Origin: an uncultured cyanobacterium
GTDB lineage: Bacteria; Cyanobacteriota; Cyanobacteriia; Cyanobacteriales; CAWCAG01
Assembly: GCA_963803805.1 (NCBI GenBank)
Contig: CAWDOD010000002.1
Coordinates: forward strand, 768,001-832,000
Length of the DNA: 64,000 nt
Direction: 5' to 3'
Part shown: piece by piece, positions 3 through 7,689 of the stretch
Layout of the letters: every line of letters begins with the position of its first letter
Position numbering within the stretch: position 1 is the first letter of the stretch
Position numbers and translations under genes: made by a program
Notes under the pieces: generated by a model
Seen by the model: the letters and a program-made list of their open reading frames with translations, nothing else
Databases searched by the model: none
What the model was told of the DNA's origin: nothing

Positions 3-3000
3 GGGATTGCGGGAGAGGTAGGGCTTAAAGATGTTAGGGCTTTACAAGAAGCGGTGAGTAGCCATAATACCCAGGAAGGTTGGCTAGTTTCTGCTAGACG
101 AGTGAGTCAAGCAGCCCGTAAAGCCATGGAAAAAGGGGAGAATAGTCACTTAGTTTGCTGTACTTTTGATGAATTGTTAGATGAAGATGCTGATTTTACT
201 ACTTATTTAGACTGGTTAGCAGAAGAGGTACAACGGCGTAGTATTGACCGTTTTTATGTTCCTTTGGGTTGCAGGAAAGAAGAAGTTGATCCGGAGACGA
301 AACAGAGATTGGGAGTTAGTTCCTATGGGGAAGAAGATGGTTGGATTGAGGGTTATGTTGATTTGTGGTTAAGTGATCCGGCGAAGGAACACCTTTCGGT
401 GTTAGGGGAGTTTGGTACAGGAAAAACTTGGTTCGCGTTGCATTATGCTTGGGTTGCTTTACAGAAATATCAAGAAGCGAAAGGAAAAGGTTTACCTCGT
501 CCCCGTTTGCCTTTGGTTATTTCTTTGCGGGATTATGCTACGGCTGTGAGTGTAGAGTCTTTATTTTCGGAGTTCTTTTTTCGTAAATACGAAATACCTA
601 TCCCCGGCTACAGTGCCTTTGAACAACTGAACCGCATGGGCAAATTGTTGCTGATTTTTGATGGTTTTGATGAAATGGCCGCCAGGGTAGATCGGCAAAA
701 GATGATTAATAACTTTTGGGAATTGGCTAAGGTGGTTGTTCCCGGTGCGAAAGTTATTCTTACCTGTCGTACCGAACATTTCCCTGAAGCGAAACAGGGT
801 AGGGCTTTGCTTAATGCGGAGTTACGTTCTTCTGTGGCTAACTTAACAGCAGAATCTCCCCAATTTGAGGTTTTAGAATTAAATAAGTTTGATGATGAAC
901 AGATTCGCCAGGTGTTTTCTTTTCAGGCAGAAGAGGCTACGGTGGAAAGGATTATGGGTAATCAGCAACTGCTGGATTTAGCCCGTCGTCCGGTGATGAC
1001 GGATTTGATTTTGGAGGCTTTGCCGGAGATTGAGGAGGGAAAACCTGTGGATATGTCTAGGGTTTATCTCTATGCGGTGCGGCGGAAGATGGAGAGGGAT
1101 ATAAAATCAGAAAGGACTTTTACTTCTTTGGCAGATAAAATGTATTTCCTCTGTGAGTTGGCTTGGGAGATGCTTTCTACTGACCAAATGAGTCTTAATT
1201 ATCGCCTCTTTCCAGAGAGGATTAGGCGCTTGTTTGGGACTACGGTACAGGAGGAGAAGGATTTAGACCACTGGCATTACGACATGATGGGGCAAACTAT
1301 GTTGGTGCGAAACTCTGAGGGGAATTACAGCCCTGCCCATCGTTCTTTATTAGAGTTTTTTGTTGCTTATAAGTTGGCAGCAGAGTTGGGAGTTTTGGCG
1401 GAGGATTTTTTAGATGTGGTGCGGCAGCAGTCAGATTTAGATGAGGGAGTTGCAGCCCAGAGTTATGGTTGGTTTGAGTATTTTCAGCGTCGGAGGAATA
1501 GTGCGGGGGAGATTGTTCCTATTGCTGGGTTGAAAGAGTTTCGTTGTGAGTCTTTGGGGCGTTTGAGAGGAAGTTTAGGACAGAGGCCCCTGGCTAAGGC
1601 AGTTTGGGATTTGTTAGTGCCGATGGTGGATAAGGAGAAAGTGGGGAGGTTATTGGATGTGGTAGAAGGTACGCGGGGCAAGACGGAGGAGGAGGTTGGT
1701 TATGTTGGGGGGAATGCAGCGACGCTTTTGGTTAAGGTTGATAATGGGGCGATTGAAGGTAAAGATTTGAGTGAAACTGTAGTTATTGGAGGGGACTTTG
1801 TTAATGCAAGCTTGCGTGATGTAAATTTTGCGAAAGCAAATCTAGCTAATTCTATTTTTCCAAAAACATTAGGTGCGATTTTAAGTATCGCTTTTAGTCC
1901 CGATGGTAAACTTTTAGCTACAGGTGATGCTAATTGTAATGTTGTTCTTTGGGAGGTTGCTACAGGTAAACAAATCTTACTTTGTCAAGATCACAATGAT
2001 TGGGTAAGTTCAGTGGCTTTTGATTCAACGGGAAAAATTGCTGTTAGTGGTAGTTTTGACAACAATATTAAACTCTGGGATTTATTTACTGGCGAATGTT
2101 TAACAACTCTACAAGGTCATACTAACAGAATTCACTCAGTTGCTATCAGTCCTGACAACAAAATTCTAGCTAGTGGTAGTGCTGATTGTACAGTAAGGTT
2201 ATGGGATCTGGTTACAGGTGCTTGTCTACAAACTTTATCAGAGTATACCAGCATTGTACGTACAGTAGCTTTTAGTCCAGATGGTCAAATGTTAGCCAGT
2301 GGCGGTAGCAATAAACGAATTAAATTTTGGTATTTGCCAGCAAAAGAGTATAGACAAACTTTACAAGGTCACACTGATTTACTCATGACAGTAGCTTTTA
2401 GTCCAGATGGTAGAACTTTAGTTAGTAGCAGCCAAGATGGAACTCTAAAACTATGGAATCTAGAAACTGGAGAATGTATTCAAACATCAGAGGAACATAC
2501 AGATTCGATTAGATGCGTTGCTATTAGTTCTGACAGTAAAACTATCGCCAGTGCAAGCGATGACAACACAGTAAATATCTGGAGTTTGGAAACTGGAGAA
2601 CGTATTCAAACACTAGAGGGACATACAGATTGGGTTAGAGGTGTTACCGTTAGTCCTGACAGTAAAATTATTGCTAGCGGTGGAGAAGATCAAAGCATTA
2701 GATTTTGGAGTAGAAACACTGGAGAATGCCTCAAGATTATACAAGGTCATTCAGGAGGTATTAGAGGAATAGCATTATACCCAGATGGTAAAACAATTAT
2801 TAGTGGTAGTGAAGACAGTGTAGTCAGAATTTGGGATTTTTCTACTGGTAAATGTCTAAAAACTTTGCGTGGACATACCAGTCGTATTAATGATGTAGCT
2901 ATTACTTCAGATGGCAATATTATTGTGACCTGTAGCTATGATAAAACTATTAAGCTATGGGATAAAATAACAGGTAAATGCTTACAAACTTTGCAAGAAC

Positions 3001-3728
3001 ATGAGCGACCAGTTAATTCATTAGCACTTAGTTTAGATGGACAACTTTTAGTTAGTGGTAGTGCAGACAAAACTGTTAAGATATGGGATCTCGCAAAAGG
3101 AGAATGTATCAAGACTTTGCAGGAACATGATGATTGGACTTGGTCTGTAGCAATTAGCCCTGATAATCAATTTGTTGTTAGTTGCAGTGATGACCAGACT
3201 GTGAAAATTTGGGAAGTCTCCTCTGGCAAGTGTTTGTATACTTTGCAATTATGTGTCAAGGGTCTGAGGTCAATAGCTTTTAGCAAAGATGGAAAAGCTT
3301 TAGCAATTGGGACTATTGATTCTGTTATAAAAATTCTAAATTTCAAGACACTTACCTGTTTTAGAAATTTAGAAGGGCATAAGAATAGCATTAAATCAGT
3401 AGCATTTAGTCCAGATGACAAAATTCTTGCCAGTAGTGGTGCAGACCGTATAATTAAATTATGGGATATGCAGACAGGAAAATGCCTCCAAACCTTAACA
3501 GGACATACGAACATAGTACAATCAATAACATTTAACATCGACGGCAAAACTCTAATTAGTGGTAGCTACGACGAAACCATCAAAATCTGGGACGTTGAAA
3601 CAGGGCAATGTCTCAAAACCCTCAGCAACAAACCCTACGCCAACATGAACATCACCGGAGTCAAAGGATTAAGCCCAGAACAAATCAACTCCCTCAAGGC
3701 TTTAGGGGCAGTGGAAAGTGGGCAATAG
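3..3728 (+). CDS. NACHT NTPase + pentapeptide repeat + WD40 repeat protein (bacterial NLR-like); 5' end lies outside the window
   Basis: Frame is open from position 3 (GIAGEVGLKDVRALQEAVS...). Walker A GEFGTGKT, Walker B LLLIFDGFDE, pentapeptide stretch DFVNASLRDVNFAKANLANS, then about 14 GH...WD repeats. Confidence 0.9.
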   Translation, partial: GIAGEVGLKDVRALQEAVSSHNTQEGWLVSARRVSQAARKAMEKGENSHLVCCTFDELLDEDADFTTYLDWLAEEVQRRSIDRFYVPLGCRKEEVDPETKQRLGVSSYGEEDGWIEGYVDLWLSDPAKEHLSVLGEFGTGKTWFALHYAWVALQKYQEAKGKGLPRPRLPLVISLRDYATAVSVESLFSEFFFRKYEIPIPGYSAFEQLNRMGKLLLIFDGFDEMAARVDRQKMINNFWELAKVVVPGAKVILTCRTEHFPEAKQGRALLNAELRSSVANLTAESPQFEVLELNKFDDEQIRQVFSFQAEEATVERIMGNQQLLDLARRPVMTDLILEALPEIEEGKPVDMSRVYLYAVRRKMERDIKSERTFTSLADKMYFLCELAWEMLSTDQMSLNYRLFPERIRRLFGTTVQEEKDLDHWHYDMMGQTMLVRNSEGNYSPAHRSLLEFFVAYKLAAELGVLAEDFLDVVRQQSDLDEGVAAQSYGWFEYFQRRRNSAGEIVPIAGLKEFRCESLGRLRGSLGQRPLAKAVWDLLVPMVDKEKVGRLLDVVEGTRGKTEEEVGYVGGNAATLLVKVDNGAIEGKDLSETVVIGGDFVNASLRDVNFAKANLANSIFPKTLGAILSIAFSPDGKLLATGDANCNVVLWEVATGKQILLCQDHNDWVSSVAFDSTGKIAVSGSFDNNIKLWDLFTGECLTTLQGHTNRIHSVAISPDNKILASGSADCTVRLWDLVTGACLQTLSEYTSIVRTVAFSPDGQMLASGGSNKRIKFWYLPAKEYRQTLQGHTDLLMTVAFSPDGRTLVSSSQDGTLKLWNLETGECIQTSEEHTDSIRCVAISSDSKTIASASDDNTVNIWSLETGERIQTLEGHTDWVRGVTVSPDSKIIASGGEDQSIRFWSRNTGECLKIIQGHSGGIRGIALYPDGKTIISGSEDSVVRIWDFSTGKCLKTLRGHTSRINDVAITSDGNIIVTCSYDKTIKLWDKITGKCLQTLQEHERPVNSLALSLDGQLLVSGSADKTVKIWDLAKGECIKTLQEHDDWTWSVAISPDNQFVVSCSDDQTVKIWEVSSGKCLYTLQLCVKGLRSIAFSKDGKALAIGTIDSVIKILNFKTLTCFRNLEGHKNSIKSVAFSPDDKILASSGADRIIKLWDMQTGKCLQTLTGHTNIVQSITFNIDGKTLISGSYDETIKIWDVETGQCLKTLSNKPYANMNITGVKGLSPEQINSLKALGAVESGQ

Positions 3729-3814
3729 GTAATAGGCACTCTTGCAATAGTATTATTACTTTTTGCACCCTCAGCTTTACTTAGTCTGATTATCCGGATT
3801 TGATATCATTGATT

Positions 3815-3864
3815 AGTCATCTTCAGATGACTTTTGCTATTAGCCTGAAATTTATTTCTAGGCG
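3815..3864 (+). repeat. Cyanobacterial dispersed double-hairpin repeat, copy 1
   Basis: agtcatcttcagatgact hairpin followed by gcctgaaatttatttctaggc; resembles the reverse complement of 3955-4007. Confidence 0.6.
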
Positions 3865-3877
3865 AGATGAAATCTCA

Positions 3878-3946
3878 AAACAGGAGAATGCTTCAAAACT
3901 CTCAGCAACAAATCCTACACCAATGTGAACATCACCAGAGTTAAGA
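3878..3946 (+). pseudogene. Degenerate duplicate of the 3' end of the NACHT-WD40 gene
   Basis: aaacaggagaatgcttcaaaactctcagcaacaaatcctacaccaatgtgaacatcaccagagttaag aligns without gaps to 3598-3666 (aaacagggcaatgtctcaaaaccctcagcaacaaaccctacgccaacatgaacatcaccggagtcaaag). Confidence 0.8.
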
Positions 3947-3954
3947 CTTAGAAA

Positions 3955-4007
3955 CCGCTAGGGATTAAAATCCCCAGCTTACAGCTTAAGTCATCTCAAA
4001 GATGACT
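3955..4007 (-). repeat. Cyanobacterial dispersed double-hairpin repeat, copy 2 (inverted)
   Basis: ctagggattaaaatccccag hairpin plus agtcatctcaaagatgact hairpin; inverted relative to 3815-3864. Confidence 0.6.
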
Positions 4008-4053
4008 CGGAGTCCTTAGACTTCTCACTTGGAGTCTAAACATTGATGAATAG

Positions 4054-4139
4054 GTAGGTTGGGTAGAGCGATTGCAACACCCAACGCACTCGCTCTCACG
4101 CCTTGCTGCTGTTGGATTTTCTCCGTCAATCCAATCTAC
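4054..4139. repeat. GTAG-type REP-like element (inverted pair)
   Basis: Begins GTAGGTTGGG...CCCAAC and ends GTTGGA...CCAATCTAC; a related half copy lies at 29374-29407. Confidence 0.55.
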
Positions 4140-4633
4140 AGTTCATGACTTTTGATCTAGATTTGAGATTAGTTACTGAGGATTTTTGTAGCCCATAAAT
4201 AAGCAAGAAATTATTTTACTAATTCTCTTGGTACTATCTTCTTGACATGATATATTTGATAATGGGGAATATATATTTTCATTCAAAAAATTGCAAATAT
4301 TCCCATTATCTAAAATAATTATACTACGTCAAGGGAAAATAAAAATTGAATTTAGAAAAAGATTTTTTTCGTAATATTTGGAAATGTTTAAATTAGCGAT
4401 CGCAAGCCTTCTACTTCGACTGCCATCCTCCTCAAACATTAGTAGAAAGAGGCTATTGCCTTAAAAATAGTACAAAGTTAGGGTAATCCCTCAACTTAAC
4501 TTCCTACCCCTAACCACTCAAACAACCCAACAGAATAGCATTGCGGCTTAAATGTAGCCAATTTGCCTTGGGGAACATACCTCTATTTACCTTAAGTATG
4601 TACAGTTAATCAACCTTAAAGAGGTATTCAACA

Positions 4634-4789
4634 ATGCTAACCAACCAAAAATCCAGCGTTTGTTTCCCTAAAGCTAGTGTTTGCTTTCCCCAAGCTAGCG
4701 TATGTTTCCCTCAACAAAGCTCTACTAATCAAGCACGTCCGACTGTTTCTCTGGTTCTAGAAGACTTGTCTAAGAGCTTGAAGCGTTAA
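4634..4789 (+). CDS. 51-aa peptide with 3x SVCFP repeats; candidate multi-core RiPP precursor (absent from the ORF track)
   Basis: MLTNQKSSVCFPKASVCFPQASVCFPQQSSTNQARPTVSLVLEDLSKSLKR*. GAGGT RBS at 4621-4625. The SVCFP copies differ only at synonymous third positions. Confidence 0.85.
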   Translation: MLTNQKSSVCFPKASVCFPQASVCFPQQSSTNQARPTVSLVLEDLSKSLKR

Positions 4790-4814
4790 TAACTTTATTG
4801 CGGCTTATTTATAT

Positions 4815-4844
4815 TGTAGGGGCAAGGGGCCCCTTGCCCCTACA
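4815..4844. repeat. Perfect 30-bp palindrome (GTAG REP-like hairpin) between the peptide and methyltransferase genes
   Basis: TGTAGGGGCAAGGGG|CCCCTTGCCCCTACA. Confidence 0.85.
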
Positions 4845-4918
4845 GAACTGGCTATTGCCACGAAATGGAGAAAAAGGACGCTACATATCATTCCCTCATC
4901 CTATCAGGAGGTTAAATA

Positions 4919-5734
4919 GTGAAAAACCCTGCTGGTTCCTACGGTTTTGAATCCTTAGAAACAAGCGCCCAGGAACAAGAAATATGGCGATTAAAGAATC
5001 AAGCAAACACTATTGTTCCTCCTCAAAGCGCTTTTTTGCAACAACTAGGGATTAAACCAGGGATGAAAGTACTAGATCTTGCTTGTGGCTCTGGTGTGAA
5101 TAGTTGCCAAATTGCTAAATTCGTCACTCCAGGAAAAGTAATTGGCGTGGATCTCAGTAAGTCAATTTTGGCTAAAGCAGAACTTATCAAAGCCAGGCAA
5201 GGTATTAATAACGTCGAATTCTACCAAGGAGATGCCTATCAACTTGACTTTCCCGAAGCATCATTTGACTTTGTTTATGTTCGGCTTTTGTTTCAACATC
5301 TTACCCATCCCCTCGAAGTACTCAAAAATATTCATCGAGTTTTGAAACCAGGGGGACTCTTGTGCGTATTAGATATTGATGAAGGTTGGGCAACCCTCTA
5401 TCCTGAACCAGAGTCTTTTACTTTGTATCGCCAAAGTTTTGCTAAAATGCAAAAAAAACTAGGCGGTGACACCTTTGTGGGGCGTAAGCTTGGTAGCTAT
5501 TTACAAAAAACAGCATTAGTCGAGGTAAAAACTCATGTAGAAATTATCTCCAGCGACGATATTGGCTTAGATAATTTTCTTAATCTCCTTTCTTTTGGTA
5601 CTCCTTATAACTCTCAACAAAAATATTTAGCAGAAGTAGCTACTCAAGCAAAAGAAGATGCCTATGCTTTATTGCTTATTCCCTACGCTTGGGCTGGGTT
5701 AGGAATTTTTGTGGTTACTGGACGTAAAGTTTAG
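4919..5734 (+). CDS. Class I SAM-dependent methyltransferase
   Basis: Motif I VLDLACGSG, GVDLS, GDAYQLDFPEASFDFV, RVLKPGG; AGGAGG RBS before the GTG start. Confidence 0.9.
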   Translation: MKNPAGSYGFESLETSAQEQEIWRLKNQANTIVPPQSAFLQQLGIKPGMKVLDLACGSGVNSCQIAKFVTPGKVIGVDLSKSILAKAELIKARQGINNVEFYQGDAYQLDFPEASFDFVYVRLLFQHLTHPLEVLKNIHRVLKPGGLLCVLDIDEGWATLYPEPESFTLYRQSFAKMQKKLGGDTFVGRKLGSYLQKTALVEVKTHVEIISSDDIGLDNFLNLLSFGTPYNSQQKYLAEVATQAKEDAYALLLIPYAWAGLGIFVVTGRKV

Positions 5735-5820: not shown

Positions 5821-5958
5821 TTACTTGAATCCGACTGCTGCTTGCCAAACAAAGGCAAGTAAAAGAAAAAAGAGAGGAATAATTGGTAAAACATCCACTA
5901 AAGGATCGAAAAGAGAATAAGCTTCGGGTAATTTCGCCAATAGCATTGCTACTTCCAT
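5821..5958 (-). CDS. psbK: Photosystem II reaction center protein K (absent from the ORF track)
   Basis: [45 protein letters not shown], 45 aa, downstream of tgt. Confidence 0.97.
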
Positions 5959-7239: not shown

Positions 7240-7689
7240 CTAAAAAGGGCAATCATCCTCATCAATCTGCACATCCCATTTAGCAGAGAGAACTTGAGCT
7301 ACCATCGCTTCTAAAGCGTCTACATCAAAATTTTTATTAACTTGCTCTTCTAAGGGACTAGACAGAGGAATTAGCCGCAACTGGCGATTCTCTTGAATTA
7401 GATCAAAGTAAGCTTCTCTATTTTCAGAGCAATGTAATTGTAAATAATCAAAACTTTGTACATTAAGATGAAGAGAGCCATTGGCAATTAAGGTAGATTG
7501 GTGAGGATCGCTAAATATCTCCACCACAAAACCTTCATTTTCAACTTGTAATTTCTCTTCTAAAGTGTGAATATATTTGACACGACCAAGGTTAGTAAGA
7601 AGACGACGCATATCGTCCTTATTAACAATAATGCCGTTATCAACAATACAAGGAGCTGGTAATTGGTGTATGGATTGTTCGTGACTCAT
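7240..7689 (-). CDS. Conserved cyanobacterial hypothetical protein
   Basis: 149-aa ORF with normal composition; no motif recognised. Confidence 0.75.
   Translation of the reverse strand: MSHEQSIHQLPAPCIVDNGIIVNKDDMRRLLTNLGRVKYIHTLEEKLQVENEGFVVEIFSDPHQSTLIANGSLHLNVQSFDYLQLHCSENREAYFDLIQENRQLRLIPLSSPLEEQVNKNFDVDALEAMVAQVLSAKWDVQIDEDDCPF

Follow-up and report, generated by a model that had tools for sequence, protein, structure and literature searches.

A cysteine-repeat peptide gene and its methyltransferase in a cyanobacterium: a rearranged member of a candidate peptide-modification module found beside STAND NTPases

The locus studied here raises the question of whether a very short open reading frame (ORF) made of three near-identical cysteine-containing repeats is a gene and, if so, what its product could serve for. 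The ORF (4634-4789) lies in a stretch of 64,000 nucleotides of the genome of an uncultured cyanobacterium (assembly GCA_963803805.1, contig CAWDOD010000002.1, positions 768,001 to 832,000), hereafter the window, and is followed on the same strand by a gene for a class I S-adenosylmethionine (SAM)-dependent methyltransferase. The original prediction, made from the letters of the window, took the two genes for a candidate new system of the RiPP type, in which peptides are made by the ribosome and modified after translation. Our comparisons suggest that the locus belongs, as a rearranged member, to a module not named before, which combines a Cys-unit peptide with a GRDP-like domain, in some cases also with the methyltransferase, and is tied to bacterial NLR-type systems. 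The predicted pairing of a precursor-like peptide with a methyltransferase stood, but the RiPP-like reading needs to be extended by the GRDP-like partner, by a role of the peptide tail that is not primarily one for the methyltransferase, and by a setting among STAND NTPases. To the extended reading, a RiPP-like, Cys-modified peptide module that serves STAND systems and has the methyltransferase as an added tailoring enzyme, we give an even chance.

We found the 51-residue ORF exactly as it had been described, with the GAGGT motif 8 nt before its ATG (Table 1), and it is a genuine gene absent from the ORF tracks of this genome. Tandem Repeats Finder reports a 21-nt period with 2.7 copies at 4655-4711. 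A chance ORF over a tandem DNA repeat, without a protein product, would be consistent with the shortness of the frame and with our failure to find it in the same-genus genome G001 (loci are numbered with L and compared genomes with G). The differences between the repeat units contradict it. Units 2 and 3, both ASVCFPQ, differ at five nucleotides, all five of them third-position and synonymous, and the probability that five differences all land on the seven third positions of 21 nt is 0.001. Between units 1 and 2, four codons within SVCFP differ synonymously and two in the flanks (S/A and K/Q) non-synonymously, so that the earlier statement that every unit difference is synonymous is true of the cores only. 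The two units of the peptide at L120 differ by six synonymous and no non-synonymous codons, and between the L163 peptide and its L164 orthologue there are 13 synonymous and five non-synonymous codon differences over 43 codons. The predicted selection on the peptide rather than on a DNA repeat thus agrees with the synonymous-only differences of units 2 and 3 and with the conserved family described below. These data indicate that the units of one peptide are alike through selection and not through recent duplication, and that the gene is real and under purifying selection, tail included. What we find here therefore has the appearance of a short ribosomal precursor gene selected as a peptide, as is expected of a RiPP. 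Given also the large family, the conserved position of the gene and its fused form, a chance ORF is practically out of the question.

A word-index search returned nine small proteins of the same build, two of which, labelled Merismopedia glauca, are identical to the ORFs upstream of the two closest methyltransferase homologues (genome G017). We then built a profile from 13 peptides and searched it against 1.84 billion representative proteins, which gave 56 matches at E<=1e-3, of which about 50 are peptides 42-68 residues long. The shared build consists of a polar N-terminus, near-identical Cys units of the type Q/K-A-S-hydrophobic-C-hydrophobic-L/P/I, and a tail of the pattern R-P-T/S-V-x-L-x-L-E/S/T-D/N-L, hereafter the RP-type tail. 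A script counted one unit in 10, two in 32, three in 12 and four in 1 of 55 peptides, a rough count in which at least three rows (P0021, P0054 and P0062) were miscounted. The tail hardly varies; the units differ from one peptide to the next yet are near-identical inside each one, suggesting a two-part precursor with a conserved recognition region and variable cores. The identity of the repeated units argues for several equal products, or several equal modification sites, per precursor.

The peptide matched no family model in Pfam or NCBIfam, and the best score in a Protein Atlas look-up was 0.76, under any useful level. Long profile matches were set aside as repeat artefacts or unrelated proteins (for example a 752-residue glycosidase-like "member"), as was P0010, a translated tandem DNA repeat. 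Weak profile matches in G449 (three stops inside), G479 (within a 406-residue ORF) and G700 (two stops inside) were judged spurious, and a metagenome scan with a narrower peptide alignment gave six loci, all of them false positives. In the metagenome contigs L152-L157 the string R-P-T-V-S-L-x-L-E-D occurs inside a 301-residue, Cys-rich ArsM-like methyltransferase ORF, which we judged to be a chance likeness.

We assessed whether the peptide and the methyltransferase belong together by following the enzyme through related genomes. The methyltransferase is as predicted, with a strong ribosome-binding site and a start 129 nt past the peptide stop, and matches Methyltransf_31 (E 4.5e-27) as well as Methyltransf_11 and Methyltransf_25. 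A close full-length homologue is present in 2 of 41 relatives (this genome and G017), an orthologue in 2 of 401 genomes sampled across the phylum, and a match at E<=1e-40 in 8 of 401 genomes sampled across the order; a family-level search found a match in 5 of 39 genomes, two of them new cassettes, and a search of a second family in 1 of 61. G001 has generic methyltransferase matches only, G447 retains the enzyme as a 131-residue relic, and G677 carries a distant paralogue beside a thioesterase-type gene. The proposed check, a search for Cys-repeat ORFs upstream of methyltransferase homologues, found a peptide directly upstream in eight of the nine full-length orthologues (the window, L002, L033, L118, L119, L125, L163 and L164), with one to three repeats and the conserved tail. 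This argues that peptide and enzyme form a functional pair in which the peptide has a precursor-like build; by this measure a presumed precursor is co-located with a tailoring enzyme, as in RiPP systems.

In concordance with this, the peptide-linked enzymes form a clade of their own in the methyltransferase tree (support 100/99), apart from GNAT-linked relatives, and the subclades follow the type of core, enzymes of CFP peptides grouping together (91/91) and those of CFC peptides likewise (100/100). The window enzyme is closest to the L002 copy (53%), and so is the window peptide (60%). The nearest non-cassette relatives come from genomes of the Opitutus, Comamonas, Pirellulaceae and picocyanobacterium types and have as fusion partner or neighbour a protein with GNAT-like and cyclic nucleotide (cNMP)-binding motifs (L034 1747-3795 and L035 1795-3810; adjacent genes in L036 and L115; motifs judged by eye), an arrangement that looks like a separate, unexplored enzyme pair.

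A perfect stem-loop separates the two genes in the window and occurs once in the genome. Strong stem-loops (-15.5 to -31.7 kcal/mol) lie in seven of the eight peptide-to-methyltransferase spacers, and the stem sequence is not conserved between distant cassettes. The hairpins behind the orthologous peptide genes of L163 (9646-9707) and L164 (6933-6998) differ by paired changes on both arms, as expected if the hairpin structure were under selection. A short ORF with repeated codons, a strong hairpin and an enzyme gene, in this order in seven of eight cassettes, could also be the mark of a cis-acting leader peptide, where stalling at the repeated Cys, Phe and Pro codons would control read-through of the hairpin and thereby expression of the methyltransferase. 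Such a role does not agree with the conservation of the whole tail as protein, seen in the codon differences between L163 and L164, nor with the occurrence of the module as a C-terminal protein extension that has no downstream gene to regulate, nor with the free copy at L120, which has no methyltransferase behind it. Moreover, we found no competing antiterminator pairing (the best alternative reaches -10.9 kcal/mol, vs -28.1 for the hairpin arms) and no T-run behind the window hairpin, so that the mutually exclusive pairing of an attenuator is lacking. We consider a leader peptide very unlikely.

We also examined what the enzyme resembles. Its structural model (predicted local distance difference test, pLDDT, 90.5) has as top Foldseek match 3mgg, an uncharacterised methyltransferase (TM 0.76), followed by a flat list at E 1e-17 to 1e-15 in which the RiPP C-terminal methyltransferase LahSB appears along with the thiol methyltransferases TmtA and GtmA. 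A complex prediction for methyltransferase and peptide, run without controls, gave a score of 0.00, which counts neither for nor against binding. The original prediction had offered the alternative that the peptide is a Cys-based ligand of a metal or metalloid, in which case the methyltransferase could be an ArsM-like metalloid methylase acting on the bound element. There is one thiol per unit, and the enzyme shows a generic Rossmann-core similarity to ArsM models (E 3.8e-21 to 2.1e-18), but its scores lie far under the cut-offs (for NF008823, 66.8 vs 263 bits). The peptides have only one to three cysteines, each among hydrophobic residues, and the genes nearby are STAND systems and not ars or other metal-resistance genes. 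The alternative thus found no support and is, in our estimate, extremely improbable.

While the pairing of peptide and enzyme held, the two-gene picture had missed a third and more basic partner. A gene for a GRDP-like (DUF1399-related) protein of about 130 residues stands right before the peptide gene in seven of the eight pairs, the window being the exception. Proteins of this kind score 29.6, 24.5, 22.4 and 17.2 bits against the Pfam GRDP-like model PF07173 (gathering cut-off 22.7; E 1.3e-6 to 2e-4), and the weak match is confined to model positions 97-143, about 45 of 143, in the C-terminal third with its V-D-x-V-W-H-x-H region. A GRDP-like profile found relatives in 79 of 401 genomes of the order, far more than carry the peptide or the enzyme. 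Eighteen of 26 non-cassette GRDP-like proteins that we examined themselves end in one or more Cys units and an RP-type tail, three of the 18 being the same protein in sister genomes and hence not independent; of the other eight, two have a Cys unit without the tail, two are ambiguous and four have neither. A profile of free peptides only matches 13 of the fused extensions at E 1.5e-5 to 2.8e-3 (285 ORFs). In most relatives, then, Cys unit and tail form the C-terminal end of the GRDP-like protein, and the methyltransferase is absent. This fusion of the Rosetta-stone type shows that the Cys-unit module has its primary partner in the GRDP-like domain and not in the methyltransferase. Among the members seen, the richest in repeats is a GRDP-like protein at L198 (1213-1917, minus strand, genome G643), whose 96-residue C-terminal extension holds seven tandem SDCLF-type units and an RP-type end.

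The tail, which had been proposed to be a follower peptide, is indeed conserved, but it is kept equally in the fused forms without a methyltransferase, so that its role is not primarily one of methyltransferase recognition. In the tree of GRDP-like proteins, the genes of the split cassettes group together (83/89) within a clade (95/91) and among the fused forms. Since this tree has a midpoint root only, we infer, rather than read from it, that the split form derives from the fused one.

The model of the GRDP-like protein (pLDDT 85.7) has six helices and matches nothing solved (no Foldseek match at E<=0.001, the best E being 1.2; best VIA-align Z 4.0 against 48,161 chains), and therefore no enzymatic activity can be assigned to it. 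Its invariant positions (Asp, Trp, His, Cys and His) would agree with an enzyme and tell nothing more. A search for longer fusions of the domain gave five weak matches, none of them informative. At L120 (315-443, contig G524:C199), the free peptide without a methyltransferase starts about 300 bp from the contig end, and a GRDP-like gene lies at the end of another G524 contig (G524:C92:3-374); the two genes may be neighbours and may form a GRDP-like and peptide pair without the enzyme. Compared with the plant GRDP proteins that typify DUF1399/PF07173, the cyanobacterial partners match the C-terminal third of the model, measure about 130 residues and are without glycine-rich regions. The literature on this family is mostly about plants and, judging by search listings, describes no bacterial peptide system.

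To see in which setting the module operates, we examined the neighbouring genes. All seven full cassettes are flanked by NB-ARC-TPR STAND NTPase genes, with an N-terminal EAD4 in four and an N-terminal LuxR-type HTH in three, and CHAT proteases lie near three of them. Among the divergent partners of the cassettes are TPR-CHAT or PDZ-CHAT proteases, EAD4 adaptor proteins and an HTH-TRADD-N-DUF1822 protein. NB-ARC/NACHT, MalT-like TPR, EAD4 or TRADD-N-DUF1822 neighbours were found at 16 of 21 loci with fused forms, in a scan of 39 of the 76 ORFs of >=120 residues (GRDP-like ORFs themselves left out, as were L174, L185, L186, L190 and L192 and one ORF each in L177, L181, L183 and L193). The genome studied here has only two EAD4 genes, one of which is the divergent neighbour of its cassette-type GRDP-like gene, and we regard this adjacency as a cleaner measure of the STAND association than the neighbourhood counts. 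The position of the module within STAND neighbourhoods points to a role in signalling or defence rather than to a classical antibiotic cluster.

The same neighbourhood could be explained by a peptide that is never modified and acts as a ligand, bait or adaptor of STAND NTPases. Its tail would be bound by a TPR or WD40 sensor or by the GRDP-like domain, its Cys units would be what is sensed, and the methyltransferase would have another substrate or would toggle the peptide on and off. TPR domains often bind C-terminal peptides in extended form; here, the tail is conserved with and without the methyltransferase, STAND-TPR genes are the most constant neighbours, and the peptides are without a secretion signal. 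On the other hand, the methyltransferase shows tight linkage and has diversified along with the core type, and selected, near-identical units fit multiple released products or a multivalent modification better than a single binding handle. We consider an unmodified ligand possible, though rather doubtful.

Systems of a comparable kind have been described by Kaur et al. (2020, eLife, PMC7159879), whose main text presents EADs as adaptor domains that recruit effectors and other peptide-processing systems as coupled to AP-ATPase-TPR proteins, the processed peptide being proposed as a toxin or signal. As far as that text goes, the likeness extends to a small peptide gene that diverges fast, less so in its C-terminal part, beside modifying enzymes and NB-ARC-TPR genes, to multicellular or colonial bacteria, and to a proposed signal or toxin working with a STAND system. 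The systems presented there have a zincin-like metallopeptidase, a radical-SAM/SPASM enzyme, FxSxx-COOH-type peptides and vWA-MoxR ternary systems, whereas here we find a GRDP-like domain, a class I methyltransferase, Cys units with an RP-type tail, and EAD4, HTH or TRADD-N partners; Pfam scans of our neighbour genes found neither a zincin-like metallopeptidase nor a radical-SAM/SPASM enzyme. An adjacent NB-ARC-TPR gene, typical of those systems, is present in all seven full cassettes, and the window has a NACHT-WD40 neighbour instead. The main text of PMC7159879 contains no methyltransferase, methylase, GRDP or DUF1399, and its supplements may list the gene. In the main text of Kaur et al. 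(2021, PMC8195603), EAD4 is mentioned in passing only, GRDP does not occur and the mentions of methyltransferase or methylase concern histone methylation; here too, the supplements may list the gene.

We also compared the module with known modified peptides. Among RiPPs, the cyanobactin PatE proteins are multi-core precursors, bottromycin has a follower peptide, and in borosins the core is fused to its own enzyme. By analogy, the present family shares with multi-core and follower RiPPs a short ribosomal precursor, a conserved recognition-like region, variable cores in one to three copies, an adjacent, presumed tailoring methyltransferase and extra precursor copies, and it shares with borosins the occurrence of both fused and split enzyme-substrate forms. 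It differs from known RiPPs in that the cassette is without YcaO, PatA/PatG, ATP-grasp or tetrapyrrole-type methylase and without a protease or exporter, and has instead a helical GRDP-like partner, a C-terminal conserved region and STAND NTPase neighbours. Cyanobactin precursors carry an N-terminal leader, in contrast to the C-terminal conserved part found here, and nothing in our tests supported the suggested likeness of the tail to the cyanobactin LAELSEE motif. No PatA/PatG or YcaO gene is adjacent, PatA/PatG having not been searched genome-wide.

As had been noted, the window contains no adjacent protease, YcaO or transporter gene, and the proposed genome-wide check for YcaO found a single gene, away from the locus on contig C8 (109659-110678, L166; a 622-residue open frame). 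About 7 kb from it, a 50-residue ORF (C8:102403-102519, L032) matches the peptide at chance level (E 0.59); together they may be an unrelated YcaO-type peptide locus.

Two further systems are alike in part. Precursors of the AgrD type are also small; their hydrophobic core contains a Cys, and their processing requires a conserved, charged C-terminal tail. The CaaX precursor of yeast a-factor has a Cys-aliphatic-aliphatic-X unit associated with a methyltransferase. Unlike in these, the cassettes examined have no AgrB, prenyltransferase, CaaX protease or ICMT homologue, and the units are internal and repeated, not C-terminal.

The state of the cassette in this genome is unusual. The spacer of about 900 bp upstream of the peptide gene consists of dispersed repeats, which lie between the NACHT-WD40 and peptide genes and have many matches of 74-89% in G001; this repeat-filled spacer marks a rearranged or inserted region. 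A tblastn search with six GRDP-like proteins found no GRDP-like relic in 3700-4650. The N-terminus of the NACHT-WD40 gene, upstream of the window, matches NNH5 (E 5.9e-49) and NA-iREase1 (E 1.3e-24; L151:9233-10099). On the other side, the convergent psbK gene is where the prediction had placed it. G001 keeps the psbK-tgt synteny (86% identity), with a different gene beyond psbK, and the absence of the unit from G001 fits an accessory, possibly decaying element. Next to tgt, the window has a 149-residue ORF (7240-7689, minus strand) without a Pfam family, which is syntenic in G001 (L139 1013-1462).

The cassette-type GRDP-like gene of this genome lies on another contig, C11 (647142-647529; L126 1492-1903, minus strand), and its pieces are closest to the L002 copy (67% and 51%). 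Its divergent neighbour is an EAD4-NB-ARC gene with an open frame of 827 residues. In the simplest history, a single ancestral cassette would have stood next to an EAD4-NB-ARC gene and been split by a later rearrangement. Contig C4 has another, distant GRDP-like paralogue, at whose end there is a single Cys unit and no tail.

Table 1 Features of the peptide-methyltransferase locus in the window.
Feature	Position	Strand	Remarks
STAND NTPase gene (NACHT + WD40 repeats), 3' part	3-3728	+	Context; no interaction with the peptide implied
Non-coding spacer with dispersed repeats	3805-4408	.	Repeats at about 3805-4017 and 4223-4408
Shine-Dalgarno-like GAGGT	4621-4625	+	8 nt ahead of the ATG of the peptide gene
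Peptide gene, 51 aa	4634-4789	+	Polar N-terminus, three Cys units and conserved tail
Three tandem 7-codon units SSVCFPK, ASVCFPQ, ASVCFPQ	4652-4714	+	Presumed modified or released cores
Conserved C-terminal tail RPTVSLVLEDLSKSLKR	4736-4786	+	Family signature; common to the C-terminal extensions of fused GRDP-like proteins
Perfect 13-bp G+C-rich stem-loop	4815-4844	+	Between peptide and methyltransferase genes; no T-run behind
AGGAGG ribosome-binding site of the methyltransferase gene	4906-4911	+
Class I SAM-dependent methyltransferase, 271 aa, GTG start	4919-5734	+	Cyanobacterial clade tied to the peptide
psbK	5821-5958	-	PsbK E 2.8e-26; convergent; end of the inserted unit

Taking these observations together with the preferred reading, a RiPP-like module serving STAND systems, we propose the following mechanism. 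The window ORF would be a free-standing copy of a module of Cys unit and RP-type tail that elsewhere forms the C-terminal extension of an all-helical GRDP-like protein. In one sub-branch, this module would have become a separate gene between the GRDP-like gene and a dedicated methyltransferase, its unit multiplying to one to three near-identical copies and a stem-loop arising behind it; the hairpin could let the short peptide message outnumber that of the enzyme. The peptide would be the precursor of a ribosomally made and post-translationally modified product, with the Cys-centred units (A-S-hydrophobic-C-hydrophobic-P/L/I) as cores that are modified at or around the invariant Cys. The GRDP-like protein may act on the units or hold them, and the methyltransferase would add a methyl group in the split systems, Cys S-methylation being the simplest guess and a carboxyl or amide target also conceivable. 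The tail may serve for docking, either to the GRDP-like domain or to the TPR sensor that the adjacent STAND NTPase carries, and the product may be a signal, ligand or effector in EAD4/TRADD-N/NB-ARC-TPR systems. The modification of the peptide, the methylated atom, the role of the GRDP-like protein and that of the product are all inferred.

Several observations speak against this proposal. The ninth full-length methyltransferase orthologue (G463, L132) has neither the peptide nor the GRDP-like gene. Remoter relatives of the enzyme (38-45% identity), from other phyla and one picocyanobacterium, are without the peptide and have GNAT-like and cNMP-binding partners, and thus the enzyme family is not peptide-specific. 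Its fold neighbours mix carboxyl, thiol, N- and C-methyltransferases, as does the sequence search, and do not indicate the acceptor atom; methylation of the peptide by this enzyme is a candidate activity. The tail, conserved as it is in fused forms without the methyltransferase, apparently cannot be a follower specific to that enzyme, and the GRDP-like protein could, from its model, be a mere carrier or leader domain. No hydrophobic secretion-signal segment was seen in the family peptides, and the conserved core of the cassettes has no leader or follower protease and no exporter, nor has the window; CHAT and PDZ proteins occur in some neighbourhoods only. As the loci share ancestry and STAND genes abound in cyanobacteria, the neighbourhood counts overstate independence. 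In G001 there is no peptide and no orthologous methyltransferase. Finally, the GRDP-like gene on C11 is in two overlapping frames (ORFs of 76 and 85 residues), through either a real frameshift or an assembly error, and with the cassette split and this gene frameshifted the local system may be reduced or decaying.

Literature searches, judged by their listings, found no description in print of a system of this peptide, the GRDP-like protein and the methyltransferase. If the proposed reading is true, the peptides would be a new family of ribosomal peptide precursors with at least about 50 sequence clusters, and the bacterial relatives of DUF1399/GRDP proteins would obtain their first functional context. 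The cassette would then be a peptide-modification system tied to EAD4/TRADD-N/NB-ARC-TPR systems, about whose triggers and messengers little is known. Two simple constructs for mass spectrometry would also be at hand, the split form with peptide and methyltransferase and the fused form in which the GRDP-like protein carries the peptide.

A bolder version, which we put forward tentatively and regard as unlikely, is that the GRDP-like domains are new peptide-modifying or self-processing enzymes acting on Cys-hydrophobic-hydrophobic units, and that the modified peptides, at this locus methylated in addition, are endogenous ligands or second messengers for the TPR sensors of cyanobacterial NLR-like STAND NTPases. 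Were this true, bacterial NLR-type immunity or programmed cell death would have in the module an arm that works by peptide signals, and a domain shared with plant GRDP proteins would obtain its first biochemical function.

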